Source: Candidatus Altimarinota bacterium (lineage in GTDB: Bacteria > Patescibacteriota > Gracilibacteria > UBA4473). Taken from it: a DNA stretch of 38,987 nt. Positions 3,479 through 36,851 of the stretch are shown piece after piece. The DNA is taken from positions 1 to 38,987 of the forward strand of contig JALVIB010000017.1 in assembly GCA_027028725.1 (NCBI GenBank), written 5' to 3'. The translations under genes and the position numbers were made by a program. Numbering within the stretch: position 1 is the stretch's first letter; every line of letters starts with the position of its first letter. The notes beneath the pieces are model-generated. The model ran no database searches and had not been told where the DNA came from. It saw nothing but the letters and a program-made list of their open reading frames with translations.

Positions 3479-3745
3479 GTTTTTTGGCTAAAATTTCGCG
3501 GGAATTTTATTTTGTTCGGTGTTTGTGGCAAATGTTTTTGAGTTACATAAGATGATTGATTAAAGAAAAATCCCCCTCAATCCCCCTTTAAAGAAAGGGG
3601 GAAGTTCCTCAGAAAAATAAACAAAGAAATTCCTTTAGCTCCCTCTTTTTTCAAAGAGGGCGGGGGGTGATTTTATAATTTCGCGGGATTTTGCCCTCAC
3701 CCCCACCCTCTCCCCAAGGGAAAGGGAGTTATTTGGAATTTATAA

Positions 3746-3773
3746 TTGACAAAATACCCCCTGTGGGTATAAT
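3746..3773 (+). promoter_or_regulatory. Sigma70-type promoter (TTGACA, 16-nt spacer, TATAAT) for the CsoR-family gene; transcript probably leaderless
   Basis: TTGACA lies at 3746-3751 and TATAAT at 3768-3773. The ATG at 3781 is only 7 nt downstream of the -10 element. Confidence 0.6.
3754..3770. promoter_or_regulatory. Inverted repeat ATACCC-N5-GGGTAT, a CsoR/CstR-type operator overlapping the -10 element
   Basis: The sequence ATACCCCCTGTGGGTAT was read directly. It has the same TACCC...GGGTA arm type as published CsoR-family operators (recalled from memory, e.g. B. subtilis copZA). Confidence 0.55.
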
Positions 3774-3780
3774 CCGGGCG

Positions 3781-4011
3781 ATGAAAAAAATTCAAAATCG
3801 GTTAAAGCGATTAGAAGGGCAGATTCGCGGTTTGCAAAAACTGCTAGAAACTGCCGATGATTGCGAAAAAATCATCATTCAGTTTTCCGCAGCGAAGTCG
3901 GCGCTGGATAATTGTTATGCGCTTCTGCTTTCTGAAAATCTCGCGAAATGTTTTCGTAATAAAGATAATCAGGATTTGGAGAAGTTGTTGAAATTGATAA
4001 TAAAAAAATAA
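3781..4011 (+). CDS. CsoR/RcnR/CstR-family (DUF156) transcriptional repressor
   Basis: KKIQNRLKRLEGQIRGLQKLLE..DC..IIQFSAAKSAL...ENLAKC. The two Cys are 29 residues apart, as in CsoR and CstR. The start is set at the ATG at 3781, because the upstream ORF extension crosses a hairpin repeat and the promoter. Confidence 0.85.
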   Translation: MKKIQNRLKRLEGQIRGLQKLLETADDCEKIIIQFSAAKSALDNCYALLLSENLAKCFRNKDNQDLEKLLKLIIKK

Positions 4012-4072
4012 GCACCTCACCCCCGCCCTCTCCTAGAAGGAGAGGGAGTATAAATAACTTTCAAATAAGGAA

Positions 4073-5680: not shown

Positions 5681-8600
5681 ATGAACAAAATTAAAGAAAC
5701 AAATTCAAGTAATCTTTCTCCCGCCTTGCGGGAGGCGAGGGGGTTAAAACTAAACTTTGCCGGTAAAATCGCGAAATTTTTCCTAGAAAATCGTCCGTTG
5801 ACGATTCTGATTTTGGTCGGGCTAATTTTCGCGGGATTTTTGTCCTACAAAATGACTCCAAAGCAGTATAATCCGACAATTTCCATGCCGGCATTTACCG
5901 TTATTGTCGATTATCCCGGAGCTTCGGCGGAGGAAGTCGAAAGATTTGTCACCCGCGAACTTGAAGAAAAAATCGCGGATGTTCCCGGAGTTGATAAGAT
6001 TTTTTCTCAATCGATGGACGGCGGGCGTGCAGTTTCTTTTGTCCAATTTTTAGTTGGGGAAGATTTTGAAGATTCTCGCGTGAAATTGACCAACAAAGTT
6101 TTGGGAAATCTAGATTTGCGACAAGGAATGATTCAAACACCGCTAATTAAATCAGTTTCCGCGGACGATGTGCCAGTTTTAACGATTGGTTTTTCTGCGA
6201 AAAATTTATCGCAAAACCAAGTGCGGGTGCTGGCTTACGACATTATGAACCAGCTCAAAAAAGTGCCAAATGTCGCGAATTTAGATATTCACGGTGGAGA
6301 ACCGCGGGTCTTGAAAATTTCCCTAGATCTAGGGCGAATGAAAAATCGCGGGGTTTCCGTGCAGGATATAAAAAATGCGATTTTGGCGAATAATTTCCGT
6401 TTCCGAACCGGGAAAATCGAAAATCCCGCGAATTTTTTTGAAGTAGAGGTGAACGGAGAACTAACCGATCCCGAGTCCGCGAAAAAAATTACCGTTGTGC
6501 CGGGCGTGAAATTAGAAGATGTCGCCAAAGTTTCGGACGGATATCGAGAAAAAACTTCTTTTGTGCAGGTTTTCAAAAAAGATGGCGTGCAAGACACGGT
6601 TTTTGTTTCTCTCGCTAAACGAAAAGGATCAAATGCGCAAACCGTTGTCAAAGACGCGCGGGAAGCTTTGTCGCGAATTATGGCTAACGAAAAATTCGCG
6701 GGATTAGATTTTCACATTTATCGTGATGAAGGAGAAGTTTCGCGGAAAGCAATTGGTGGATTGATGCAAAATCTAATCTCCTCAATTCTGATTGTTTCCA
6801 TCGTTCTGTGGCTGTTTCTCGGACTTCGTTCAGCTTCAATTGTGGCGATTGCTATTCCGCTGACGATGGCGGGAGTTTTCATTATCGGGTATTCCGCGGG
6901 GAAAAATATCAACCGCGTGACTTTGTTTGCTTTGATTTTATCGCTGGGACTTTTGGTCGATTCGGCGACGGTCGTGGTAGAAAACATTTATCGGCATTTG
7001 CAGGAAAAAGCAAAATCCGCGAAAAAATCACTTCAAGTTCGGCGGGAAGCAATTGTCGAAGCGGTAAATGAAGTGGGAATCGGATTATTTTTATCAACTT
7101 TGACTTCGGTGATTGTCTTTTTGCCGACTTCCAACCTGTCAGGAATGATGGGAGATTACATGGGACCATTATCTTTCTTTTTGCCGATGGCGTTGATTGT
7201 TTCCATGTTGGTCGCCTATGTTTTGACGCCTTTTTTGGCTGATGTGATTTTGCCAAGAGACCTCACCCCAAACCCTCTCCTAGAAGGAGAGGGAGCTAAA
7301 AGGAATTTATCATTTTTTGACCGCGTAACAGAAAAATATTCTAAACTACTGACTAAAATTTTGGATAAAGATAAATTCCGCCGATTCTTTTTGATAACGA
7401 TTTTTGGGGCATTGTTTTTAGTTTTTACTTTTCCTGTTTTGAAATTAGTGCATTTCAAAATGCTCCCTTCGGCGAACAAAAACCAATTCTTTGTTTACAT
7501 CGACGCGCCACAAGATACAAATTTCCCGCAAACGCAAAAAATCGCGGGATTTATCAGCAAAGAACTTCTGAAAAATCCGGAAATTGTTTCGGTGCAAAGT
7601 TTTGTCGGCACGGCTTCCGTCGTGGACTTTAACGGACTTTTCAAAGGAGCGAATTACCGCATTGCACCGTATATGGCAACTTTGCGGGTGAATTTAACCG
7701 ACACAGATGATCGTTCGATTAAATCAACACCACTTCTGGACGCGGAACGAGATAAAATTCTCGCGAAAATTTCTAAACTTCAAAATAGTACCGTTTGTCA
7801 GGGGGAAGCTTGTGAAAATCCCGTGAAAAATAGCCCTCACCCCAACCCTCTCCCCGAGGGAGAGGGAGATATAAACTTTTACGAAACTTTGAAAAACACC
7901 ACTTTCAAATTCTTGGAAGATCCACCGGGTCCGCCGGTGCGGGCGACTTTGATGGCTAAAATTAAAGGTCCAAACCGCGAGCTTTTGAAAAAAGTCGCGC
8001 GTGATGTAGAGGAAATGTTCCGCAAAACTGATCGCGTGGTGGACATTGATACTTCTATCAGTGACAATGTGCGAAAAGTTTCGTTTCGCGTAGATCACGA
8101 AAAAGCTTTGGAAGCGGGGATTACGACCATGCAAATTTATGAAGCGTTGTCGGCAATTACTGCGGAAAAAAATATTTCCCAGTTCCACCAAAAAGATTCA
8201 CCGGAAATGATTGACATTACTTTGAGCGTGCCACCAGAAAAACGCGATAAATTGGAAGATTTGACCGAAGTTTACATCAAAAATTTCGCGGGAAATATGG
8301 TGCCGCTTTCCGCTGTCGTTCGTAAAGTGGAAACTCGTCCGGAGGAAGTTCTTTATCTCGACACACGCGATGAAACAATTTATGTGACGGGGGAATTGAA
8401 AAATCGGAGTGTGATTTACGCGACAATTGATTTGATGTTTGATATTTTTGATTACGATTTTCCGGAAGGTGGAAAAATCGTGGATTGGAGTTTGTACGGA
8501 TTTGATTTTGAGACAAAATCCCGCGAAATTTACCATATCGAATGGGGTGGAGAACGCGAGCTGACTTTGGATAATTTTCGCGACTTGGGATTGGCGATGT

Positions 8601-9136
8601 TGATTGCGTTTATCGCGATTTATGGTGTGCTAGTGGCGCAGTTTGAGTCTTTCAAAGTTCCGCTTCTAATCATGAGTACGGTTTTCCTCGGATTTTTGGG
8701 AATTATGCCGGGATTTGCAATTTTAGACAAAACCCTCGGAACTTTCCTAACCGCCACCAGTTTGATTGGATTTATTGCCTTGATGGGGATTGTGGTGAAT
8801 AACGCCATTATTTACTTGGAATATTTTGATATTCTACGCGACCGCGGAGTAAATTTTCGCGATGCTTTATTTCAAGCCGGAAAAACTCGTTTGCGACCGA
8901 TTGTTTTGACTTCCATGACAACGGTTTTGGGAAGTCTGACCATTATTAACGATCCGGTTTGGTCGGGATTGGCGTGGACAATTATTTTTGGATTATCAAT
9001 TTCCGCAGCTTTCACACTAGTGGTTTTCCCAGCGTTAATGGCAAGTTTTCCGCCAAAAGTTCGTGACGAAGACCATTTACTCAAACCGAATCCGAAAGCA
9101 AATTGTGCTTGTGAAATTAAAAATCCCGCGAAATAA
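5681..9136 (+). CDS. RND efflux transporter permease (AcrB/CzcA/CusA superfamily)
   Basis: 1151-aa ORF with a 12-TM RND layout and conserved segments (ALILSLGLLVDSATVVVENI, LIGFIALMGIVVNNAIIYLE). It carries in-frame hairpin-repeat insertions at 5718-5734, 7261-7295 and 7834-7868. Confidence 0.9.
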   Translation: MNKIKETNSSNLSPALREARGLKLNFAGKIAKFFLENRPLTILILVGLIFAGFLSYKMTPKQYNPTISMPAFTVIVDYPGASAEEVERFVTRELEEKIADVPGVDKIFSQSMDGGRAVSFVQFLVGEDFEDSRVKLTNKVLGNLDLRQGMIQTPLIKSVSADDVPVLTIGFSAKNLSQNQVRVLAYDIMNQLKKVPNVANLDIHGGEPRVLKISLDLGRMKNRGVSVQDIKNAILANNFRFRTGKIENPANFFEVEVNGELTDPESAKKITVVPGVKLEDVAKVSDGYREKTSFVQVFKKDGVQDTVFVSLAKRKGSNAQTVVKDAREALSRIMANEKFAGLDFHIYRDEGEVSRKAIGGLMQNLISSILIVSIVLWLFLGLRSASIVAIAIPLTMAGVFIIGYSAGKNINRVTLFALILSLGLLVDSATVVVENIYRHLQEKAKSAKKSLQVRREAIVEAVNEVGIGLFLSTLTSVIVFLPTSNLSGMMGDYMGPLSFFLPMALIVSMLVAYVLTPFLADVILPRDLTPNPLLEGEGAKRNLSFFDRVTEKYSKLLTKILDKDKFRRFFLITIFGALFLVFTFPVLKLVHFKMLPSANKNQFFVYIDAPQDTNFPQTQKIAGFISKELLKNPEIVSVQSFVGTASVVDFNGLFKGANYRIAPYMATLRVNLTDTDDRSIKSTPLLDAERDKILAKISKLQNSTVCQGEACENPVKNSPHPNPLPEGEGDINFYETLKNTTFKFLEDPPGPPVRATLMAKIKGPNRELLKKVARDVEEMFRKTDRVVDIDTSISDNVRKVSFRVDHEKALEAGITTMQIYEALSAITAEKNISQFHQKDSPEMIDITLSVPPEKRDKLEDLTEVYIKNFAGNMVPLSAVVRKVETRPEEVLYLDTRDETIYVTGELKNRSVIYATIDLMFDIFDYDFPEGGKIVDWSLYGFDFETKSREIYHIEWGGERELTLDNFRDLGLAMLIAFIAIYGVLVAQFESFKVPLLIMSTVFLGFLGIMPGFAILDKTLGTFLTATSLIGFIALMGIVVNNAIIYLEYFDILRDRGVNFRDALFQAGKTRLRPIVLTSMTTVLGSLTIINDPVWSGLAWTIIFGLSISAAFTLVVFPALMASFPPKVRDEDHLLKPNPKANCACEIKNPAK

Positions 9137-9209
9137 CCCCCTAACCCCCTTATCAGGGGGAAATAGATGAGCAATAATTTAAAAGTAAAAATTTTAACCC
9201 CTATATAAA

Positions 9210-10177: not shown

Positions 10178-11689
10178 ATGTTTTCCAATAAGAAAATCCT
10201 CGGGAACGCTTTCGCGCAGTTTGGCGGAAAGTTTATCACGATGTTCACGAGTTTTTTGATTGTGAAGTTGATAACTTCCCTTGGGGCGAGTTTTTATGGA
10301 CAATATGTGACAGCTTCTGAATTTTTAGCGTTTTTTGGGATTATTGCGGATATGGGGCTTTTTGCCGTGGCGGTGCGGGAAATTAGCAAGGCGGATAGTG
10401 CGAAAAATCCCGCGAAAAAAGACCTCACCCCAAACCCTCCCGAACACTCGGGACTAGAAGGAGAGGGAATACACTCAAGTTCGGAATTCATTTTAGGAAA
10501 TATTTTGTCATTTAGATTACTTTTAATTTTAGGAGTAATTATTTTCGCGGGAATTTTTGCGCAATTTGTTCCGCAGTATTCTCCTGATTTGAAACTGGGG
10601 ATTTGGATTACTGCGATTTCTATGGGTTTAACAATTATCGCGGGAACTTTATCCAGTGTTTTGCAGGCACGAATGAAAATTCATAAGTATTCTTTGTCTT
10701 TGGTGATAGGGAAAATACTTTATGCTATTTGCGTATTTTTTATTATCAAAAATACGGAAATTTTCGCGGGATTTAACATCTTTTTTACTATTTTATGGGC
10801 AGGCGCGATTTCCAATTTTATTGTATCTTTATTAGTGTACTACTTTGTTTCCCGCGAAATTAAAATCCGCCTGCTTTGGGACACGAAATTCATCAAAAAA
10901 ACACTGCGCGATACTTTGTCTTACGGGCTGGCACTGGTTTTGCAAACTCTATATTTACGCATCGATATGATCTTGATTTCCATTATTTTGGGGATAACTT
11001 TCGCGGGAATTTACGGTGTGGCGACACGCGTTTTGGAATCAATTTTGGTTTTGGGCGTGTTTTTTGGGCAAGCGATGTTACCGCAGATTTCCGCACAGGA
11101 ACAAGATAGACAAAAATCTTCCGCGAGTTTGGTCTGGGGAATTGAGAAACTGCTCATTTTCTCTCTACCGATTATTATTGGCGTGAGCTTTTTTTCGCGG
11201 GATTTGGTAATACTTTTGAGTTCCAAAGAATTTCTGACCACCGCAACACAAATCGGATCTGACCGAATTTTACAAATCCTCATTCCGACCGTTTTTTTCG
11301 CCTTTTTCAACCAACTTTTCACTTTCACTTTGGTCGCGAAAAATTTACAGCGGAAACTGGTCTGGATAAACGGTTTGGCGCTCATCGCCAACGCGGTTTT
11401 GAACATTATTTTCCTGCGTCAATACGGACTTATCGCGGCGGCTATTTCAACCGTTGTTTGTGAAGTCTTGGTTTTTATTCTACTTTCCCGCGAAATTTCG
11501 CGACATTTTTCGTTTCCATTTTCCCGAAAGAATTTGAGCATAATTTTGCTGGCAAATTTAGCAATTTTCGCGGAAATTTTCTTTACTCCGCTTCGCGATA
11601 ATTTACTTCTAGCGGTTTTGATTTGCGGGATTACTTATTTGGTGATTTTGGGGACGAATGTTCGCGGATTCTTAAATTCATCAGAATAA
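10178..11689 (+). CDS. MOP-superfamily polysaccharide/lipid-linked oligosaccharide flippase (Wzx/MurJ-like)
   Basis: 503-aa polytopic membrane ORF with a typical polysaccharide-biosynthesis-protein layout. An in-frame hairpin element lies at 10423-10469. Confidence 0.75.
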   Translation: MFSNKKILGNAFAQFGGKFITMFTSFLIVKLITSLGASFYGQYVTASEFLAFFGIIADMGLFAVAVREISKADSAKNPAKKDLTPNPPEHSGLEGEGIHSSSEFILGNILSFRLLLILGVIIFAGIFAQFVPQYSPDLKLGIWITAISMGLTIIAGTLSSVLQARMKIHKYSLSLVIGKILYAICVFFIIKNTEIFAGFNIFFTILWAGAISNFIVSLLVYYFVSREIKIRLLWDTKFIKKTLRDTLSYGLALVLQTLYLRIDMILISIILGITFAGIYGVATRVLESILVLGVFFGQAMLPQISAQEQDRQKSSASLVWGIEKLLIFSLPIIIGVSFFSRDLVILLSSKEFLTTATQIGSDRILQILIPTVFFAFFNQLFTFTLVAKNLQRKLVWINGLALIANAVLNIIFLRQYGLIAAAISTVVCEVLVFILLSREISRHFSFPFSRKNLSIILLANLAIFAEIFFTPLRDNLLLAVLICGITYLVILGTNVRGFLNSSE

Positions 11690-11776: not shown

Positions 11777-11866
11777 GGAGAGTTGCCGGAGCGGTCGAAC
11801 GGGGCACCCTGCTAAGGTGTTGTACCCGCAAGGGTACCGAGGGTTCGAATCCCTCACTCTCCGCCA
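11777..11866 (+). tRNA. tRNA-Ser (anticodon GCU), CCA encoded
   Basis: Hand-folded cloverleaf: acceptor GGAGAGT/ACTCTCC, anticodon loop CTGCTAA, long variable arm (TGTACCCGCAAGGGTACC), T arm GAGGG-TTCGAAT-CCCTC, discriminator G plus CCA. Confidence 0.9.
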
Positions 11867-12092: not shown

Positions 12093-13388
12093 ATGAAAAA
12101 ATATCTTCTAGCGACTGTTTTACTAGCGGTGATTTTCACAATCCCGCGAATTTTCGCCACTTACGAGTGGCGGGAAACCAAAATTTCGCGGGTTTTGAGT
12201 TCTAATGTTTTTGTAACTTTGGATGATAAAAAGTGGCGGATAATCGGGGTTTTGCCGAATGACGAATTTTCTTCTAACAAGCGAGAGGCCTGCCACGCCA
12301 AGGGAAATTCCCGCGAAATTAGCGAGCTGTTGCTGGATAACAAAATTTTTTCCGCGACTGATGAAAAAGTCAAAGATGCATTGCACTTGAAAATCGGCAA
12401 AGAATATGTGACGGAAATTATTTTGCGAAAAGGTTGGGCAAAAATGAATGATGATGAAGTGAGTTCGTATTTTTCCGCGAGATTTAAGCGAGCGCAGGAA
12501 CTTGCGCAGAAAGAAAAACTTGGTTTGTGGGGACCATGTTTGGATGACTTGAATTGGCAAAAAATTCGCGGGAATTTCGGCGAACGCATGCGGAAATTGA
12601 AACGCGAAAATCCACAATTTCTCGGCTCGGTAGCGGTTGGTGAAGTGGTGGAAGTTTTGTCAGGCAATGAGTTTCGGTTGAAAAACGGACCAATTGTGCG
12701 CTTGGCAGATGTGGAAATTCCCCGCGAAAATAATTCGGCGAGTCGCTGTTTTCAGAAAAACTCGCGAAATTATTTGGAAAATCTGATTTTGGGCAAGAAA
12801 GTTCGTTTGGAAAAACCGGTAAATTCCCGCGAAATTATGGATTACAAGTTGGTGCGGGTGGTTTATTTGGAAGAGGGGAATCGTTTGAAAAAACTACCTC
12901 ACCCTCCCGAGTACTCGGAACTAGGAGAGGGAGCCAACCTAAATTTTCGCCACCACCTTGCGGGGGGAAAGAATAAAAATTTTCGCCACCGCCTTGCGGG
13001 GCACAGCGGGATTTCGGTTAATGAAAAAATGATTCGGGATGGTTTTGGGAAATTCGCGGGATTTTCAAAACCTCACCCCAACCCTCTCCTAGAAGGAGAG
13101 GGAGTTTTAAAGGAATTGCAAAAAGAAGTTTATGCTAATCCGCGGGGGGCGTGGGCGATTTGTGCGCGGGAGATTTTGAATACTTCGGTGGAAAATCCCG
13201 CGAAAAATTCCGAAATTCGTGAAATTGACGAGAATTGTCCGATTAAAGGGAATATTTCTGGCACCAAAGCCAATCCGATAAAAACTTATCACACCGTTTT
13301 GAGCGGTTGGTACGATCGTGTCCAGCCGGAACAATGTTTCCAAACAGAGGAAGAGGCAAATCTCGCGGGATTTCGGAAGGTGAAGTGA
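12093..13388 (+). CDS. Secreted nuclease with two SNase (thermonuclease)-like domains and a C-terminal IKGN..YH..CF..EA..GFR module
   Basis: N-terminal signal/anchor MKKYLLATVLLAVIFT. Domain 1 ends in AQKEKLGLWGPC and domain 2 in ANPRGAWAIC. The tail reads CPIKGNISGTKANPIKTYH...CFQTEEEANLAGFRKV. Several hairpin repeats are translated inside domain 2. Confidence 0.75.
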   Translation: MKKYLLATVLLAVIFTIPRIFATYEWRETKISRVLSSNVFVTLDDKKWRIIGVLPNDEFSSNKREACHAKGNSREISELLLDNKIFSATDEKVKDALHLKIGKEYVTEIILRKGWAKMNDDEVSSYFSARFKRAQELAQKEKLGLWGPCLDDLNWQKIRGNFGERMRKLKRENPQFLGSVAVGEVVEVLSGNEFRLKNGPIVRLADVEIPRENNSASRCFQKNSRNYLENLILGKKVRLEKPVNSREIMDYKLVRVVYLEEGNRLKKLPHPPEYSELGEGANLNFRHHLAGGKNKNFRHRLAGHSGISVNEKMIRDGFGKFAGFSKPHPNPLLEGEGVLKELQKEVYANPRGAWAICAREILNTSVENPAKNSEIREIDENCPIKGNISGTKANPIKTYHTVLSGWYDRVQPEQCFQTEEEANLAGFRKVK

Positions 13389-13863: not shown

Positions 13864-13964
13864 TTTGTAAAAATTTCGCGGGATTTTTAACTATTTCGTA
13901 GACTCTGAATCAAGTTCAGAGAGTTTGTTTTATTTTTTCGCGGGATTTTTGTATACTTTTCGCG

Positions 13965-15065
13965 ATGCAAAAAATTAAAAATCAACCTCACCCCAACCCT
14001 CTCCTAGAAGGAGAGGGAGTTAAAAGGATTTATTTAAAACAACCCCCTCAATCCCCCTTGTCAGGGGGAAGCTCTGGAAATCCCGCGAAAAAAAAGCCGT
14101 TTATTCCAAATTTGAAAAAATTGTCCCAAAATCCGCAACGATTAGCTAGCGGGCATCGGCTTTGTCCGGGGTGTGGGATTGGAGTGATTTTGAAGCAAGC
14201 ACTGACGACGATTGATAATCCTGTGGTGGTTGCCAATGCGACAGGGTGTTCGGAAATTTGTTTTTCGCCGTATCCGCAAAACGCTTTCAAAGTGCCGTGG
14301 ATTCACTCGGTTTTTGAAAACAGCGCGGCGGTGATTTCCGGTGTGGAGTCGGCGTGGCGAGTTTTCGTGAAAAAAGGAAAACTGACTGAGGAACAGAAAA
14401 AAATTAAATTTTTAGCCGTCGGCGGAGACGGAGCGACTTACGATATCGGGTTTCAGTGGCTGAGTGGGGCGATTGAACGCGGGCACGATTTCACTTACAT
14501 TTGTTTCGATAACGAAGGATATATGAACACTGGTTATCAGCGATCGGGAGCGACAAATTTGGGGTTCGCGACACATACTTCCCCAGTTGGAAAGAAAATT
14601 GTCGGGAAAATTCAGCAACGGAAAGATCTAACGCGGATTATTGCGGCGCACCATATTCCGTATGTGGCGCAGGTAAATCCCGCGAATTCTTTTGATTTGA
14701 TGAAAAAAGCCAAAAAAGCGTTTGATGCGGAAGGACCAGCTTTTTTAAACGCTTTCTCGATGTGTCCGACAAACTGGAAATATTCCAGCGAACAGGGGAT
14801 TGAGATTGCGGCGTTGGCAACTGAAGCGGGATTATGGCCACTTTATGAAGTCGATCACGGGCGTTGGAAAATTAATTTCAAACCGAAAGCCAGCAAAACT
14901 TACCGCGAAAAAAACGAGCCGTTGGAGAAATTTTTATCACTGCAAGGACGGACTAAACACCTTCTCAAACCGGAAAATCGCGGGATTTTGGACCAACTCA
15001 AAAAGCAAATCGCTGACGATTGGGATTATTTGCTGGGTATGGAGGAAGCGTTTCCGTTGAAGTAA
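13965..15065 (+). CDS. porB: 2-oxoacid:ferredoxin oxidoreductase beta subunit (TPP-binding, PorB-type)
   Basis: GHRLCPGCG and GGDGATYDIGFQWLSGAIERGHDFTYICFDNEGYMNTG (TPP-binding signature). The first roughly 45 codons are translated repeat elements. Confidence 0.85.
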   Translation: MQKIKNQPHPNPLLEGEGVKRIYLKQPPQSPLSGGSSGNPAKKKPFIPNLKKLSQNPQRLASGHRLCPGCGIGVILKQALTTIDNPVVVANATGCSEICFSPYPQNAFKVPWIHSVFENSAAVISGVESAWRVFVKKGKLTEEQKKIKFLAVGGDGATYDIGFQWLSGAIERGHDFTYICFDNEGYMNTGYQRSGATNLGFATHTSPVGKKIVGKIQQRKDLTRIIAAHHIPYVAQVNPANSFDLMKKAKKAFDAEGPAFLNAFSMCPTNWKYSSEQGIEIAALATEAGLWPLYEVDHGRWKINFKPKASKTYREKNEPLEKFLSLQGRTKHLLKPENRGILDQLKKQIADDWDYLLGMEEAFPLK

Positions 15066-21872: not shown

Positions 21873-22385
21873 TCACCGCAAGGCATATAAGGCAATCCCC
21901 GTGGCGATGGAAACATTGAGCGAAGTTTTTTGTCCATACATCGGGATTTCTAAATGTAAATCACATTTGTCCAAAGTTTCTTCGGACACTCCCGTCACCT
22001 CGTTCCCTAGAATAAGCGCCATTTTTTCGATTCCTGAAACATTTTCCGTAAAAATTTCGCGGGATTTTGGTGTCTGTTCCAAGGCCACAATTTGGAAACC
22101 ATCTGCTTTTAATTTATCTAAAAGTTCAGCAATGTTCTCAACTTTTTCCCATTCAATAAAGTCTTCCGCGCCCAAGGAAACCTTTTCAATTCTACGATCT
22201 GGGGGACAACCTGTGTAGCCACATAAAAAAACTTTGTTCCAGCCGGCTCCGTCCGCTGTCCGAAAAACAGATCCAACATTATGCAAAGAACGCAGGTTCT
22301 CCAAAATAACCACTCGTTTTTTCGCGGGATTTTTACTCCCTCTCCCCCGGGGAGAGGGTTGGGGTGAGGGCTTAATAAAATTCAT
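21873..22385 (-). CDS. SpoU/TrmH-family RNA 2'-O-methyltransferase
   Basis: LRSLHNVGSVFRTADGAG, LILGNEVTGVS and EIPMYGQKTSLNVSIATGIALY. The N-terminal roughly 25 residues are translated repeats (PSPQPSPRGRGSKNPAKK). Confidence 0.85.
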   Translation of the reverse strand: MNFIKPSPQPSPRGRGSKNPAKKRVVILENLRSLHNVGSVFRTADGAGWNKVFLCGYTGCPPDRRIEKVSLGAEDFIEWEKVENIAELLDKLKADGFQIVALEQTPKSREIFTENVSGIEKMALILGNEVTGVSEETLDKCDLHLEIPMYGQKTSLNVSIATGIALYALR

Positions 22386-22391
22386 TGCCAA

Positions 22392-22796
22392 TTATTCTTC
22401 GGTTTCTTTTTTCTCTGTGTCGAAAGTTGCGGCTTTTTCTAGTTTTGCCGCTTCCTCAGCTGCCGCCAGTTCTTTCTTTTGTTTCGGAGTAAGTTTAATT
22501 TTATGAACTCGTCCTTTCTCTTTATTTGTAGTGTGTTGCGGATTGTGTCCGGCTAGTTTAGCTTTTTCCGCAGCTTTCTCGGCAGTTGTTTTAAACCCCG
22601 CTTTTTTCGCGAGTTTTTTCAAAGTCTTAATAGCTTTCGCTGATAATCGCATTCTTTCCACTCGTCCGGTTTCCGGATTCCACATTTTTTTCCAGAACAA
22701 ATTTGGACGGAAAGTTCGTTTAGTTGCTTTCAATGAAAAGGGACGATTTTGTCCGCTAGTTGTCTTTTTTCCGGTATGTTGACAGACTCGAGCCAT
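22392..22796 (-). CDS. rpmB: 50S ribosomal protein L28 with a roughly 70-aa Lys/Ala/Glu-rich C-terminal extension
   Basis: MARVCQHTGKKTTSGQNRPFSLKATKRTFRPNL matches the L28 N-terminus. The start is the ATG (rc of 22794-22796). Confidence 0.85.
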   Translation of the reverse strand: MARVCQHTGKKTTSGQNRPFSLKATKRTFRPNLFWKKMWNPETGRVERMRLSAKAIKTLKKLAKKAGFKTTAEKAAEKAKLAGHNPQHTTNKEKGRVHKIKLTPKQKKELAAAEEAAKLEKAATFDTEKKETEE

Positions 22797-24434: not shown

Positions 24435-26462
24435 ATGTCTCAGAAAAAAAGCACCGAAAATCCCCACCGCCTTGCGGGGCACAGCGCGAAATTATTTAAT
24501 TTAGTTTCCGAATTCAAGCCAACTGGTGATCAGCCAGTGGCGATTGAGAAACTAAATCAAGGTTTAAATGATGGCTTGCGTCACCAAACTTTACTCGGGG
24601 CGACGGGGACAGGGAAAACTTTTACTATGGCGAATATTATCGCTAAACAGAATAAACCAACGCTAATTCTCGCGCATAATAAAACGCTGGCGGCGCAACT
24701 TTGTGCGGAGTTTCAGCAGTTTTTTCCCGATAACGCGGTGAATTATTTTGTTTCTTATTACGATTATTACCAGCCAGAGGCGTATATGCCACGAACGGAT
24801 ACTTTCATCGAAAAAGAGGCAACCATTAACGAAGAAATCGCGAAATTTCGGCACGCGGCGACCCAAAATTTGCTGACTAGAAAAGACACAATTATTATTT
24901 CCTCAGTTTCTTGTATTTACGGAATTGGGAGTCGCGAAGATTACGAAAACGCCGCTTTTACAATTAAAAATGGGGAAGAATATCCGCGAAAAGAGTTTCT
25001 GAAAAAGTTAGTTGATATGCGTTACGAACGCGTTAAAGCAGATTTTTCGCGGGGAACTTTTGAAGTTTTGGGCGATGTTATCACAATTTTCCCGCCAGGT
25101 GGAGATATCGCTTACCAGCTGGAATTTTGGGGCGATTCTTTAGACAAAATTTCAGAAATTGACGCTTTTACGAGCGAAGTTTTTCGCGAGTTAGACGAAA
25201 TAACTCTTTTCCCCGCGAAACATAATATTACTTCTCCCGCGAAAGTTGAGCAGGCGATTGCCAAAATTGAAGCCGAGCTAAAATCCCGCGAAAAACAGCT
25301 TCGCGATATGGGAAACCCGTTGGCGGCGCACCGCCTTCACCAGCGAACGATGTATGATATTGAAATGTTGCGTGAAACGGGCTACATTTCCGGTATTGAG
25401 AACTACACGCGATATTTAAACAATACGCCAGAAGGCGCTCCACCGACAACTTTAATCGACTTTTTTCCAGACGATTTTTTATGTTTTGTTGATGAATCGC
25501 ACATTACGATTCCGCAAATTGGCGGAATGTATAACGGAAATTTGTCGCGAAAACAGACCTTGATTGAGCACGGGTTTCGGCTTCCTTCGGCGATGGATAA
25601 TCGTCCGTTAAAATTCGCGGAATTTGAGCAAAAAATCAAACAAGCCATTTATGTTTCCGCGACTCCGGGGAAATATGAGTATGAGCATTGTCCAAAAGAC
25701 CAAATTGTCGAGCAGATTATTCGGCCGACGGGATTGCTTGATCCAAAAATCGATGTTCGTCCGACCGAAAACCAGATTGACGATTTAATGAACGAAATTG
25801 ACGCAACAATTAAGAAAGGATTTCGTGTGCTTTTGACGACCGTCACCAAGAAATCGGCCGAAGATCTCGCGGAATATTTAATCGAAAACGGAATTCGCGC
25901 GAAATATTTGCATTCGGAAATTCAGACTTTTGAGCGCGTGGAAATTTTGACAGAGTTGCGAAAAGGAACGATTGATGTGGTAGTCGGAATTAATCTTTTG
26001 CGGGAAGGATTAGATTTGCCGGAAGTGGCTTTAATCGGAATTTTGGACGCTGATAAACGCGGATTTTTGCGGTCGCGAGATGCGATGCTTCAAATTATCG
26101 GACGAGCGGCGCGAAACGAGGAAGGTCGCGTGATTATGTATGCGGACACAATGACCGAGGCGATGCAAGAAGCCATTTCCGAGACAAATCGACGGCGCGC
26201 GATTCAGGAAGCGTATAACAAAAAACACGGAATTACGCCGAAGACAATTATCAAAAAAATTGTAGATATTTCTAAAGACTTGTCCGGCGGAAAACCGCGA
26301 AATTTTGAAAAACTCACAAAGAGCGACCAAATCGGACAAATGATTGTTGAACTTGAATTAGAGATGGACATTGCAACCAAAAACCTTGATTTTGAGCGCG
26401 CGGCAGCACTGCGTGATCAAATTGAGGAGTTGGAGGAAAGATTAAGGAAGATGAAGCGGTAA
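24435..26462 (+). CDS. uvrB: Excinuclease ABC subunit B
   Basis: GATGTGKTFTMA, YYDYYQPEAY, DESH and a C-terminal UVR domain (AAALRDQIEELE). A hairpin element at 24463-24487 is translated as PHRLAGHS near the N-terminus. Confidence 0.96.
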   Translation: MSQKKSTENPHRLAGHSAKLFNLVSEFKPTGDQPVAIEKLNQGLNDGLRHQTLLGATGTGKTFTMANIIAKQNKPTLILAHNKTLAAQLCAEFQQFFPDNAVNYFVSYYDYYQPEAYMPRTDTFIEKEATINEEIAKFRHAATQNLLTRKDTIIISSVSCIYGIGSREDYENAAFTIKNGEEYPRKEFLKKLVDMRYERVKADFSRGTFEVLGDVITIFPPGGDIAYQLEFWGDSLDKISEIDAFTSEVFRELDEITLFPAKHNITSPAKVEQAIAKIEAELKSREKQLRDMGNPLAAHRLHQRTMYDIEMLRETGYISGIENYTRYLNNTPEGAPPTTLIDFFPDDFLCFVDESHITIPQIGGMYNGNLSRKQTLIEHGFRLPSAMDNRPLKFAEFEQKIKQAIYVSATPGKYEYEHCPKDQIVEQIIRPTGLLDPKIDVRPTENQIDDLMNEIDATIKKGFRVLLTTVTKKSAEDLAEYLIENGIRAKYLHSEIQTFERVEILTELRKGTIDVVVGINLLREGLDLPEVALIGILDADKRGFLRSRDAMLQIIGRAARNEEGRVIMYADTMTEAMQEAISETNRRRAIQEAYNKKHGITPKTIIKKIVDISKDLSGGKPRNFEKLTKSDQIGQMIVELELEMDIATKNLDFERAAALRDQIEELEERLRKMKR

Positions 26463-27747: not shown

Positions 27748-27822
27748 AGGAAAAAACTTCGCGGGAATTTTTGAGAAATCACCCCCCGCCCTCTTTGAAA
27801 AAAGAGGGAGCCAAAAGAATTT

Positions 27823-31393: not shown

Positions 31394-31430
31394 GATAAAA
31401 ATCCCGCGAAATTTTTACCTCAGACAATAA

Positions 31431-31457
31431 AAAAGCGCTCTTGCGGAGCGCTTTTTT
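31431..31457. terminator. Bidirectional rho-independent terminator between the surface-protein gene and dnaK
   Basis: The hairpin GCGCTC-TTGCG-GAGCGC is flanked by an A-run on one side and a T-run on the other. Confidence 0.6.
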
Positions 31458-31529
31458 GAGTTCTTTCATTTTTTAAACTACCTCACCCCAGCCCTCTCCT
31501 AGAAGGAGAGGGAGGCGAAAGGAATATTT

Positions 31530-35337: not shown

Positions 35338-36015
35338 ATGGGCGAAAAAAAAACTCTGGCACTTCTGTTGAAAAAAACTTTACTACCAAATGATGATGCG
35401 GTTTTGGAGTTTTTGACAATGGAAATGGGGAAAATCACGGTCTTTGCCAAAAAATTCGCGAAATCTAAAAAACGCAACGAAATCGATTTTTTCCGAGTAA
35501 TTGAGCTGGGAATTTTTCAGGGACGAAACTCAAAATCCCTGAAACAAGCGCAAACTTTTTCCCTATTCCATAATTTTTCGCGGGATTTTTGGTCAACGCA
35601 AATTGGTTTTGAGTGGCTGGAATTTATTCGGCAAATCGTCCCCGAAGAAGAAATTGACCATAAGCTATTTAAGAAAATTATTGACCTGTTTACACATTAT
35701 TCCGCGGATTATAAAGACCAGTGGAACGCTTATTTTCAGGTGCAGTTGCTAGATTTCGCGGGATTTTGGCCGAAGTTTGACCGTGTCCGAAGTGATATTT
35801 ATTTTGATCCATTGACCAAGAAAATTTCGCCACCGCCTTGCGGGGCACAGCGAGATTTTGTTTCTGAAGCTATCGCCATTACTAATTTAGAAAGACAAAC
35901 TTTGGAATTTTTGCGGCGAGCTGATTTAGCTGAATTTTCCGTAAAAATAGAGAAAATCCCGCGAAATTTTGCGAAAATTTTTGAAGTCCTCTCTGCAGTG
36001 CAAAGTTTTAAATAA
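35338..36015 (+). CDS. recO: DNA repair protein RecO
   Basis: N-terminal OB-fold pattern (LLLKKTLLPNDDAVLEFLTMEMGKITVFAKKFAKSKKR) and a RecO-like length. A hairpin element at 35827-35853 is translated as SPPPCGAQRD. Confidence 0.65.
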   Translation: MGEKKTLALLLKKTLLPNDDAVLEFLTMEMGKITVFAKKFAKSKKRNEIDFFRVIELGIFQGRNSKSLKQAQTFSLFHNFSRDFWSTQIGFEWLEFIRQIVPEEEIDHKLFKKIIDLFTHYSADYKDQWNAYFQVQLLDFAGFWPKFDRVRSDIYFDPLTKKISPPPCGAQRDFVSEAIAITNLERQTLEFLRRADLAEFSVKIEKIPRNFAKIFEVLSAVQSFK

Positions 36016-36641: not shown

Positions 36642-36671
36642 GTAAAACAAAAACAAATACAAAATATAAAG

Positions 36672-36700
36672 AAAAAACCGCCTCGGCGGTTTTTTCTTTT
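36672..36700 (+). terminator. Rho-independent terminator
   Basis: The hairpin ACCGCC-TC-GGCGGT is followed by TTTTTCTTTT. Confidence 0.7.
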
Positions 36701-36851
36701 GGCTCCCTCTTTTTTCAAAGAGGGCGGGGGGTGATTTTCTTTTAAAAAAATCCTCCTAAATCCTCCTTTCAAAAAAAGGAGGACTTATTTGAAAAATCCC
36801 GCGAAATTTTCTCGTAAACTTGTAAACTCGTTAACTCGCGAACTATTCGCA

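Follow-up and report, generated by a model that had tools for sequence, protein, structure and literature searches.

In-frame residence of a repeat fitting the BoxC/PIT/TMECO triplex motif in housekeeping genes of a Patescibacteria bacterium

Gene content and repeat copies of the window

The stretch analysed here, positions 1 to 38,987 of contig JALVIB010000017.1 from Candidatus Altimarinota bacterium (assembly GCA_027028725.1; hereafter the window), is 84% coding, with 32 open reading frames (ORFs), and carries 15 copies of a short, G/C-rich hairpin repeat. Seven of the 15 lie in coding sequence: two each in the genes for an RND pump and a nuclease, one in a flippase gene and one each at the N-termini of PorB and TrmH. 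Given the coding fraction of the window, genic copies are thus depleted relative to random placement, but far from excluded. The original prediction, made from the letters of the window, had listed 15 hairpin copies, and the count and all coordinates were verified with an nhmmer model and a hairpin scan. Eight copies are near-identical and canonical (type A), and the other seven are variants (three B, three C and one E).

The canonical form is a 34-nt core with the consensus CCTCACCCC-NN-CCCTCTCC-loop-GGAGAGGGAG, and its eight copies differ pairwise at 0-7 of the 34 positions; those at 13071 and 13986, in the nuclease and PorB genes, are 100% identical over 38 nt. The nhmmer model, built from the eight canonical copies, recovers these at E-values of 1e-16 to 1e-19 and scores the variants more weakly, the E-type copy being added by the separate hairpin scan. 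For the 19-nt head there are seven matches in the window (at most three mismatches) against none in dinucleotide-preserving shuffles. Folded as DNA (ViennaRNA), the A core is predicted to pair over a 9-bp stem closed by a 3-nt loop (-9.5 to -10 kcal/mol), while the 11 nt of its C-rich 5' tail stay unpaired. The G-rich strand reads CCCTCTCC(Y)-loop-(R)GGAGAGGG-TTG-GGGTGAGG, in which a second purine tract comes after a 9-bp pyrimidine/purine hairpin. A 3' tail of approximately AAAGGAATTT, found at a fixed distance from the hairpin foot, is common to five of the eight A copies, all three C copies and some copies of a smaller repeat family, D. In the B type (1975-2008, 10423-10468 and 12897-12932) the left hairpin arm is split by a 12-14-nt palindrome, CCCGAGTACTCGGGA.

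Copies within protein-coding genes

The RND pump (1151 amino acids), the flippase and the nuclease are encoded by intact ORFs with homology on either side of each element, and their orthologs at 70-85% identity lack the element-coded segments. The pump was aligned with 17 full-length homologs, the nearest of which, P0010, is 82% identical. Its site 1 (7261-7295, + strand) is an A-type copy with one extra A, coding for LTPNPLLEGEGA at residues 528-539, in a cytoplasmic linker after a helix that ends at residue 523; the predicted local distance difference test (pLDDT) score is below 50 at residues 529-542. Orthologs carry an unrelated linker that is 4-6 amino acids shorter, which corresponds to a net gain of +4 to +6. 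Site 2 is a composite (7772-7882, +) in which a D-like half-element and a CGCGGGA-like motif precede an A-type copy at 7835-7868 (PHPNPLPEGEG); it adds a net 81 nt, or +26 to +27 amino acids, with pLDDT below 50 at residues 704-729. P0010 lacks six amino acids at site 1 (DLTPNPLLEGEGAKRN vs. DLSKKEKNNKK) and 26 at site 2. The stretch 7261-7868 contains two copies of the form CCTCACCCC(A)AACCCTCTCC-loop-GGAGAGGGAG within a single ORF, and one predicted junction peptide in the pump is NSPHPNPLPEGEGDINFYETLK. The pump also has terminal extensions (5681-5743 and 9089-9136) of about 20 amino acids at the N-terminus and about 15 at the C-terminus, both absent from orthologs and both with pLDDT below 50; the last residues of the C-terminal one, EIKNPAK, are coded by the CGCGGGA motif.

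In the flippase gene (Polysacc_synt/MurJ-like) a 60-nt in-frame insertion (10417-10476, +) holds the B-type copy at 10423-10468 (DLTPNPPEHSGLEGEG). The ortholog on the related locus L003 (82% identical) lacks exactly 20 amino acids, KKDLTPNPPEHSGLEGEGIH, and comparison with this empty site at the DNA level reveals a clean 60-nt insertion directly after AAATCCCGYGAA and abutting AAATCCCGCGAA. Neither a target-site duplication nor terminal inverted repeats were found at this junction, the sole one read at base resolution against a true empty site. The net gain is +20 amino acids in the window and +16 in sister strains.

The nuclease comprises two SNase-like domains, the second of which contains site 1 (12869-12962, +), a composite of the B-type copy at 12897-12932 (PHPPEYSELGEG) followed by D-like repeats and repeats of a further family, G. 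Eleven orthologs lack about 39 amino acids at this site, where pLDDT is below 50 at residues 263-304. Site 2 (13071-13104, +) is an A-type copy with a CGCGGGA motif 10 nt upstream and codes for PHPNPLLEGEGV at residues 327-338; orthologs carry an unrelated loop that is four amino acids shorter (+4), and pLDDT is below 50 at residues 325-334.

The two remaining genic copies are N-terminal. The PorB composite (13975-14093, +) consists of an A-type copy (13986-14019), its tail, a D-type copy (14042-14073) and a CGCGGGA motif; it codes for 36 extra residues after MQK, including PHPNPLLEGEGVK, and is followed by the TPP_enzyme_C domain. Translation of this copy is supported by a sister allele that uses the same ATG and keeps the frame. 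At the N-terminus of TrmH (SpoU methylase) an A-type copy (22336-22369, - strand) is read as PSPQPSPRGRGS and adds about 15 amino acids. In the window this gene has no in-frame start between the ATG at 22385 and NPAKK, the only upstream start being the ATG that precedes the element, and the copy is probably translated, which is supported by the reading frame of a sister allele.

The proposal that a palindromic repeat lies in frame within real, intact genes was thus borne out, as the ORFs align with orthologs and allele differences are multiples of three; the hosts are not pseudogenes, and no ortholog has the same peptide at the same site. The original figure of 11-16 added residues was imprecise, with net gains between +4 (nuclease site 2) and about +39 (nuclease site 1) and several insertions being composite or loop-replacing. 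As to structure, all element-coded segments in the AlphaFold models of the pump and the nuclease have pLDDT below 50 and lie between confident helices or strands, i.e. in low-confidence loops. Related lineages bear unrelated insertions of their own in other or the same loops, as in the RND pump P0006 (YLKTGSPLSRGLIPSSAHSSRDVIEI and NPGPKGTSLSNDGK) and the nucleases P0122 (NPLAPLSGGKDKNN, which looks D-type-coded), P0123 and P0125; repeat-coded loops may be common in this clade.

Reading frames and orientation

PorB and the second sites of the RND pump and the nuclease use the sense frame PHPNPLLEGEG. An extra A brings RND site 1 and the flippase copy into the same hairpin frame, so that they read LTPNPLLEGEG. 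The frame SPQPSPRGRG is used in TrmH and in a guanylate kinase gene on L129, a short metagenome contig of the same lineage, while LTPALSPRERE is found in a Wzy-like ORF on contig L140 and is possible only where the loop lacks TAG. A TAGAA loop leaves two sense frames and one antisense frame open, out of three each. In all eight genic copies (seven in the window plus the gmk copy on L129) it is the C-rich strand that is read as sense, which is a weak sign of extra selection against the G-rich sense strand. On L129 the P-loop strand of guanylate kinase begins six codons past the element, with no ATG, GTG or TTG in between, and the element must therefore be translated there. A protein search with three concatenated element-coded peptides returned four tiny ORFs only, with E-values above 1.

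Alleles in sister strains

Sister strains, represented in four further metagenome runs, are about 90-97% identical to the window. RND site 1 holds the element in the window and in all sister strains seen, including a contig without site 2, with no length difference; site 1 looks older than site 2. At RND site 2 the 111 nt of the window (7772-7882) are replaced in X3, X4 and X5 by 30 nt (RAGEVDPEIK and similar) or 42 nt, a difference of 81 or 63 nt, and the element is kept on one X2 contig. The PorB segment (13975-14093; 119 nt) is 11 nt in a sister allele that reads MQKTDKPKPFIPNLKK from the same ATG at 13965, a difference of 108 nt. For nuclease site 1 the 94 nt of the window correspond in X4 to 22 nt of a D-type element (72 nt shorter), so that this site has a B-type copy in the window, a D-type copy in X4 and, by its appearance, a D-type copy in ortholog P0122. 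The flippase copy has the B form in the window and the canonical A form (DLTPNPLLEGEGIH) in the sisters, which are 12 nt shorter; the two-gap alignment can arise only from a read with a canonical A copy, and the A/B difference is therefore a conversion of repeat forms at a fixed site. The TrmH segment (22333-22413) is 81 nt in the window and 28 nt in X4, giving MGNPAKKRVVILENL, and it spans a gene boundary.

Among close strains, copies have thus been gained, lost, replaced by repeats of another type and converted from one of the A and B forms to the other. All length differences in coding regions (81, 63, 12, 108 and 72 nt) are multiples of three, which fits selection on translated sequence and supports the PorB copy as being translated.

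Relation to the BoxC/PIT/TMECO motif

In sequence, the 34-nt core agrees with the intrastrand-triplex motif published as BoxC/PIT/TMECO. Holder et al. (2015; PMC4666352) equate BoxC with PIT (potential intrastrand triplex) elements and with 'TMECO', give the pattern CCCTCNCCC-N3-6-GGGNGAGGG-N3-GGGNGAGGG with at most one mismatched stem pair, and report it 3610 times in 262 proteobacterial genomes. This pattern has two exact matches in the window (7834-7866 and 22338-22370) and, with at most one mismatch per stem, seven copies (at 3694, 4014, 7834, 13070, 13985, 22338 and 31480), compared to none in 50 shuffles; the copy at 7261 misses it solely through a 4-nt linker. When the third strand is paired on paper, GGGAGAGGG against reversed GGGTGAGGG, nine of nine triplets are allowed for the copies at 7835 and 22336, and eight of nine for the purine tracts of copies with a TAGAA loop. 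The second purine tract could fold back antiparallel on the first via G·G-C, A·A-T and T·A-T triplets, and in such a putative purine-motif triplex the third strand is complementary to the conserved CCTCACCCC head. The earlier term hairpin under-describes the element.

In E. coli, oligonucleotides of the motif form an intrastrand purine-motif triplex in vitro, all 23 copies of strain MG1655 are intergenic, no promoter or terminator activity and no link to mobile elements was found, and the motif is associated with local sequence turnover between strains (PMC4666352). Kaplan et al. (2016; PMC5100583) interpreted the same motif as a G-quadruplex/hairpin switch. We find it in 4525 of 5426 complete E. 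coli genomes, at a median of six places, and among the matches listed no annotated feature lies beneath the best ones.

A scan for CCTCACCCC-NN-CCCTCTCC-N5-GGAGAGGGAG in one genome per bacterial species showed that at least 120 genome loci, spread over more than 12 phyla, carry the core. Its hosts include Enterobacter, Citrobacter, Pseudomonas, Acinetobacter and Polaromonas, as well as members of Verrucomicrobiota, Planctomycetota, Acidobacteriota, Chloroflexota, Nitrospirota, Myxococcota, Bacteroidia, Melainabacteria, Elusimicrobia and Omnitrophota and another Patescibacteria genome. The flanks of at least 139 copies are unrelated between lineages; lineage-specific flanks do exist. The TAGAA loop was considered as a lineage marker and rejected, the same loop being found in unrelated genomes of 50-66% G+C.

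In these other phyla 45 of at least 139 copies lie in frames that are open for at least 60 codons on both sides, many of which must be spurious in genomes of high G+C. The three cases checked have hosts confirmed by Pfam: a Polaromonas radical-SAM protein of the YgiQ type, in which the element falls inside PF08497, a UvrA-like protein that has several copies, and an SLT transglycosylase. A search of the open-access literature, including the element-coded peptide strings, found no report of translated BoxC/PIT copies.

Host lineage and repeat density

The best homologs of the RND pump are from metagenome-assembled genomes of Patescibacteria (candidate phyla radiation), the nearest named ones being Gracilibacteria and Dojkabacteria at 49-53% identity, and a hydrothermal-vent metagenome run covers 99% of the window. 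Pyrimidine/purine hairpins number 23 in the window, the D family included, which is a density of 5.9 per 10 kb. The orthologous loci L001, L003 and L004 (64 kb together; RND pump 76-79% identical; 29-33% G+C) have zero such hairpins and zero element copies, and the short contigs L129, L132 and L140 carry the same repeats as the window. The repeat expansion thus appears to be specific to one hydrothermal-vent Patescibacteria lineage. The G+C content of the window is 39.5% vs. 29-33% in L001-L004, and part of the higher value may stem from the CGCGGGA motif and the G/C-rich repeats.

Intergenic copies and further repeats

Three A-type copies are intergenic. The one at 3695-3728 (+), with an imperfect stem, lies upstream of a csoR-like repressor gene, that at 4015-4048 (+) between the csoR-like and membrane-fusion-protein genes, and that at 31481-31514 (+) between convergent genes, where it adjoins a separate canonical terminator at 31428-31458. 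The third B-type copy (1975-2008, +) is intergenic and has a degenerate head. C-type copies, consisting of CACCCCCCGCCCTCTTTGAAAAAAGAGGGAG plus the tail, are found between genes at 3627-3673 (-), 27776-27822 (+) and 36694-36737 (-), the last overlapping the foot of a canonical terminator at 36668-36699. Variant E (1924-1946, -) is a 10-bp pyrimidine/purine hairpin, TCTCCCTCCT/AGGAGGGAGA, with the flanking head CCGCCCTCTC. We rejected the A, B and C cores as intrinsic terminators: they have no T tail and none is among the terminator-like sites. Also rejected were translated copies at the starts of the csoR-like ORF (3691-4011), a Pif1-like ORF and an FtsX-like ORF, whose true starts lie downstream according to ortholog length or an internal ATG; csoR-like repressor orthologs have 76 amino acids, and the 106-amino-acid ORF of the window that starts in the element at 3695-3728 is over-extended. 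An Rfam scan of the window found two tRNAs only and no RNA family over the elements.

The D family is a smaller triplex-type repeat, ACCCCCT-NN-CCCCCT-loop-AGGGGG, for example at 9134-9165 (+), with further copies starting near 1753, 3568, 17273 (-), 20224, 23398, 24091 (-), 34181 and 36930. Except for the pieces inside composite insertions, D copies lie between genes, several of them directly after a stop codon. Family G, read as NFRH(H/R)LAG, occurs at 12977-13014, 35825-35858, 24464-24486 and 12941-12965, i.e. twice in the nuclease insertion, once in a RecO-like ORF and once at the UvrB N-terminus; its metagenome depth is very high (about 800).

A motif of about 19 nt, aAAAtTTTCGCGGGATTTT, is very frequent throughout the window (e.g. 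2031-2046, 13874-13886 and 22317-22332). Its 9-nt core, TTCGCGGGA, is present in 99 copies in 39 kb vs. 0.14 in shuffles, distributed 51/48 between the strands, with 70 copies inside genes and often read as NPAK or FAGF. There are 49 copies in 21 kb of L003 and none in L001, L002 and L004. This density, about one per 400 bp, exceeds those of DNA uptake sequences and of the cyanobacterial HIP1 palindrome.

Three other features of the window were noted. A D-type repeat lies directly upstream of the likely ATG of a PIF1-like helicase gene (about 7-1722, -); helicases of the Pif1 family unwind non-B DNA such as G-quadruplexes, in keeping with a genome rich in structured, G-rich repeats. In the ORF for ribosomal protein L28 (22392-22850, -; 152 amino acids) the Pfam domain covers residues 21-79 only, the remainder being a Lys/Glu/Ala-rich C-terminal extension whose end varies among sister strains (TEKKETEE* vs. 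TEVKKAA*). For tRNA-Ser(GCT) (11777-11866), contigs in three runs link the end of the tRNA to its own start with 11 nt in between, at a depth of about 1000; these joins could reflect a tRNA duplicated in tandem in related genomes, or reads of a conserved tRNA that cross-map.

Origin and persistence of the genic copies

We consider it probable (about 0.7) that the element is a triplex-type repeat, selfish or neutral, whose copies turn over through recombination or repair and persist within genes only if reading frame and protein fold permit. It would be no part of the genes it inhabits, having expanded alongside families B, C, D and G and the CGCGGGA motif. Persistence in a gene would require a length change that is a multiple of three, a C-rich sense strand, which leaves two or three frames open, and a Pro/Gly/Glu-rich peptide placed in a disordered surface loop, a linker or an N-terminus. 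The conditions are partly borne out by the alleles and models described above. The peptide itself would have no function of its own.

With regard to mechanism, the inserted segments are patchworks of modules that recur elsewhere in the window (A core, D core, CGCGGGA and G), in an order that varies by site, and some events replace resident loop sequence. A CGCGGGA-type motif lies within about 10 nt of the 5' end of five of 14 window copies and three of three on related contigs (P ~4e-4), and no transposase domain, including the RAYT type (IS200/IS605-like Y1 transposase), is found among the 32 ORFs of the window. Ectopic recombination, gene conversion or repair-templated insertion therefore fits better than transposition of one unit, and the simple insertion of a single unit implied by the original prediction gives way to mosaics, replacements and conversions, with no target-site duplication at the flippase junction. 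Turnover may thus proceed through recombination or repair-templated events, often beside a CGCGGGA motif, rather than by cut-and-paste of one unit. This part of our interpretation is tentative, and both the identification of the motif and its status as an in-frame passenger are much firmer.

Several points weigh against the interpretation as a whole. The shared 3' tail AAAGGAATTT suggests a defined unit of about 50 nt, which would suit a trans-acting HUH/RAYT-like enzyme, and the transposase scan covered 39 kb of the genome, so that such a gene could lie elsewhere. The status of a neutral passenger leaves the near-identity of the 34-nt core across phyla unaccounted for. Triplex formation by the vent variants is predicted from pairing rules, and in the published E. 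coli work a stable triplex was not seen in vivo. That the elements are translated is deduced from reading frames, the orientation bias is marginal among open frames ((2/3)^8 = 0.04), and the sister-strain alleles were read from short contigs whose assembly breaks at repeats.

The same tail, at its fixed distance from the hairpin foot, would be expected of a non-autonomous element similar to Rickettsia palindromic elements (RPEs) or MITEs (miniature transposable elements that have inverted repeats), i.e. a unit of about 35-50 nt (core plus tail) moved by a transposase encoded elsewhere, e.g. of the HUH/RAYT type, with in-frame copies filtered by selection. The high identity of the copies, the presence/absence differences among closely related strains and the RPE precedent for in-frame residence agree with this. 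Yet the flippase junction shows neither of the expected terminal signatures, insert length and content vary (the 34-nt core alone and composites of 48, 60, 81 and 108 nt), several events replace resident sequence, and the window has no transposase. Moreover, the E. coli motif has no mobile-element association (Holder et al., PMC4666352), and the core is constant while the flanks differ in every phylum, so we regard this explanation as unlikely. A very unlikely alternative is that the element is a functional nucleic-acid structure under selection, such as a switch (hairpin, triplex or G-quadruplex) at which transcription, translation or replication pauses, an element that stabilises transcripts, or a hot spot of recombination by which exposed protein loops diversify. 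It would explain the conservation of the core across phyla despite unrelated flanks, the conservation of all codon positions in genic copies and the repeated hits of one loop by different repeats in different strains, and published work connects the motif with genome instability in its vicinity and with switching between a hairpin and a G-quadruplex (PMC4666352, PMC5100583). Against this, close strains and orthologs manage without the copies, the host genes share no common function, the A copies lack a terminator-like T tail while true terminators stand beside two intergenic copies, and in published tests neither promoter nor terminator activity, nor a stable triplex in vivo, was seen. An artefact, whether misassembly at repeats or decaying pseudogene hosts, is hardly credible: short-read contigs of the source run do break at elements, but the host ORFs align end to end with orthologs on both flanks of every element, independent contigs from other samples span four of the sites (RND sites 1 and 2, flippase and PorB), and length differences preserve the frame throughout.

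A further, quite unlikely possibility is that the core is a self-propagating, structure-driven element copied by a universal host process, without a dedicated transposase. Candidate processes would be fork stalling with template switching and break repair primed at short motifs like CGCGGGA. If true, this would account for the same core in more than 12 phyla with unrelated flanks, and the process would now be active in the vent lineage, building and reshuffling surface loops and N-termini of housekeeping proteins.

Implications

BoxC/PIT elements have been known since the 1990s, and the published picture is of an intergenic motif found mainly in proteobacteria and cyanobacteria. The window presents a known motif class in an unreported setting: the host belongs to the Patescibacteria, and the copies are extremely dense, lie in frame in housekeeping genes and turn over between strains. 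As alleles with and without the element are found side by side among close strains in public metagenomes, gain, loss and conversion are directly measurable. If the element is selfish, very small streamlined genomes can hold selfish DNA inside essential genes, and the copies in the Polaromonas YgiQ, UvrA-like and SLT transglycosylase genes indicate that in-frame residence is not confined to one lineage. Annotation is affected as well: repeat-coded loops and N-termini inflate protein lengths, shift predicted starts and create spurious 'hypothetical proteins' in metagenome-assembled genomes.

Comparison with known systems

RPEs, as summarised in PMC10969869 from Ogata et al. (2000), are about 150 bp long and form ten families in Rickettsia. 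The element described here resembles them, in so far as that summary goes, in being a palindromic repeat that lies in frame in unrelated housekeeping genes with a peptide compatible with the host fold. It is set apart from the RPE description by its size (a 34-nt core, about 50 nt with the tail), its distribution across phyla, its triplex-type rather than long-stem structure and its often mosaic or loop-replacing insertions. The RPE precedent named in the original prediction thus holds for behaviour, i.e. in-frame residence; the family, which follows the BoxC/PIT/TMECO pattern in more than 12 phyla, is a different one. Intragenic MITEs (intragenic enterobacterial repetitive intergenic consensus and Correia elements; PMC10969869) are likewise small repeats in ORFs that give in-frame fusions or strain-specific variants, but they measure 100-300 bp and have terminal inverted repeats and target-site duplications, neither of which is seen here at the flippase junction. 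Repetitive extragenic palindromic (REP) sequences, bacterial interspersed mosaic elements and REPINs share with the present element short (20-40 nt), G/C-rich hairpins in many copies, mosaic clusters and a conserved short sequence alongside; unlike it, REPs are extragenic, have species-specific sequences and come with an associated RAYT gene.

The closest likeness in sequence is to BoxC/PIT/TMECO, with its pyrimidine/purine hairpin and third purine tract, dispersed single copies in both orientations, mosaics with other repeats and local turnover between strains. The MG1655 chromosome measures about 4.6 Mb, and its 23 copies compare with eight canonical copies in 39 kb here, an approximately 40-fold higher density. 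The host is a Patescibacteria genome of 39% G+C rather than a proteobacterium or cyanobacterium, and most copies differ from E. coli BoxC/PIT in their 8-9-bp stem, TAGAA loop region and lineage-specific AAAGGAATTT tail. In contrast to MG1655, where 23 of 23 copies are intergenic, 7 of 15 copies here are in coding sequence and in frame; an intergenic location thus describes the E. coli motif rather than defining it, in-frame copies being found in other phyla as well.

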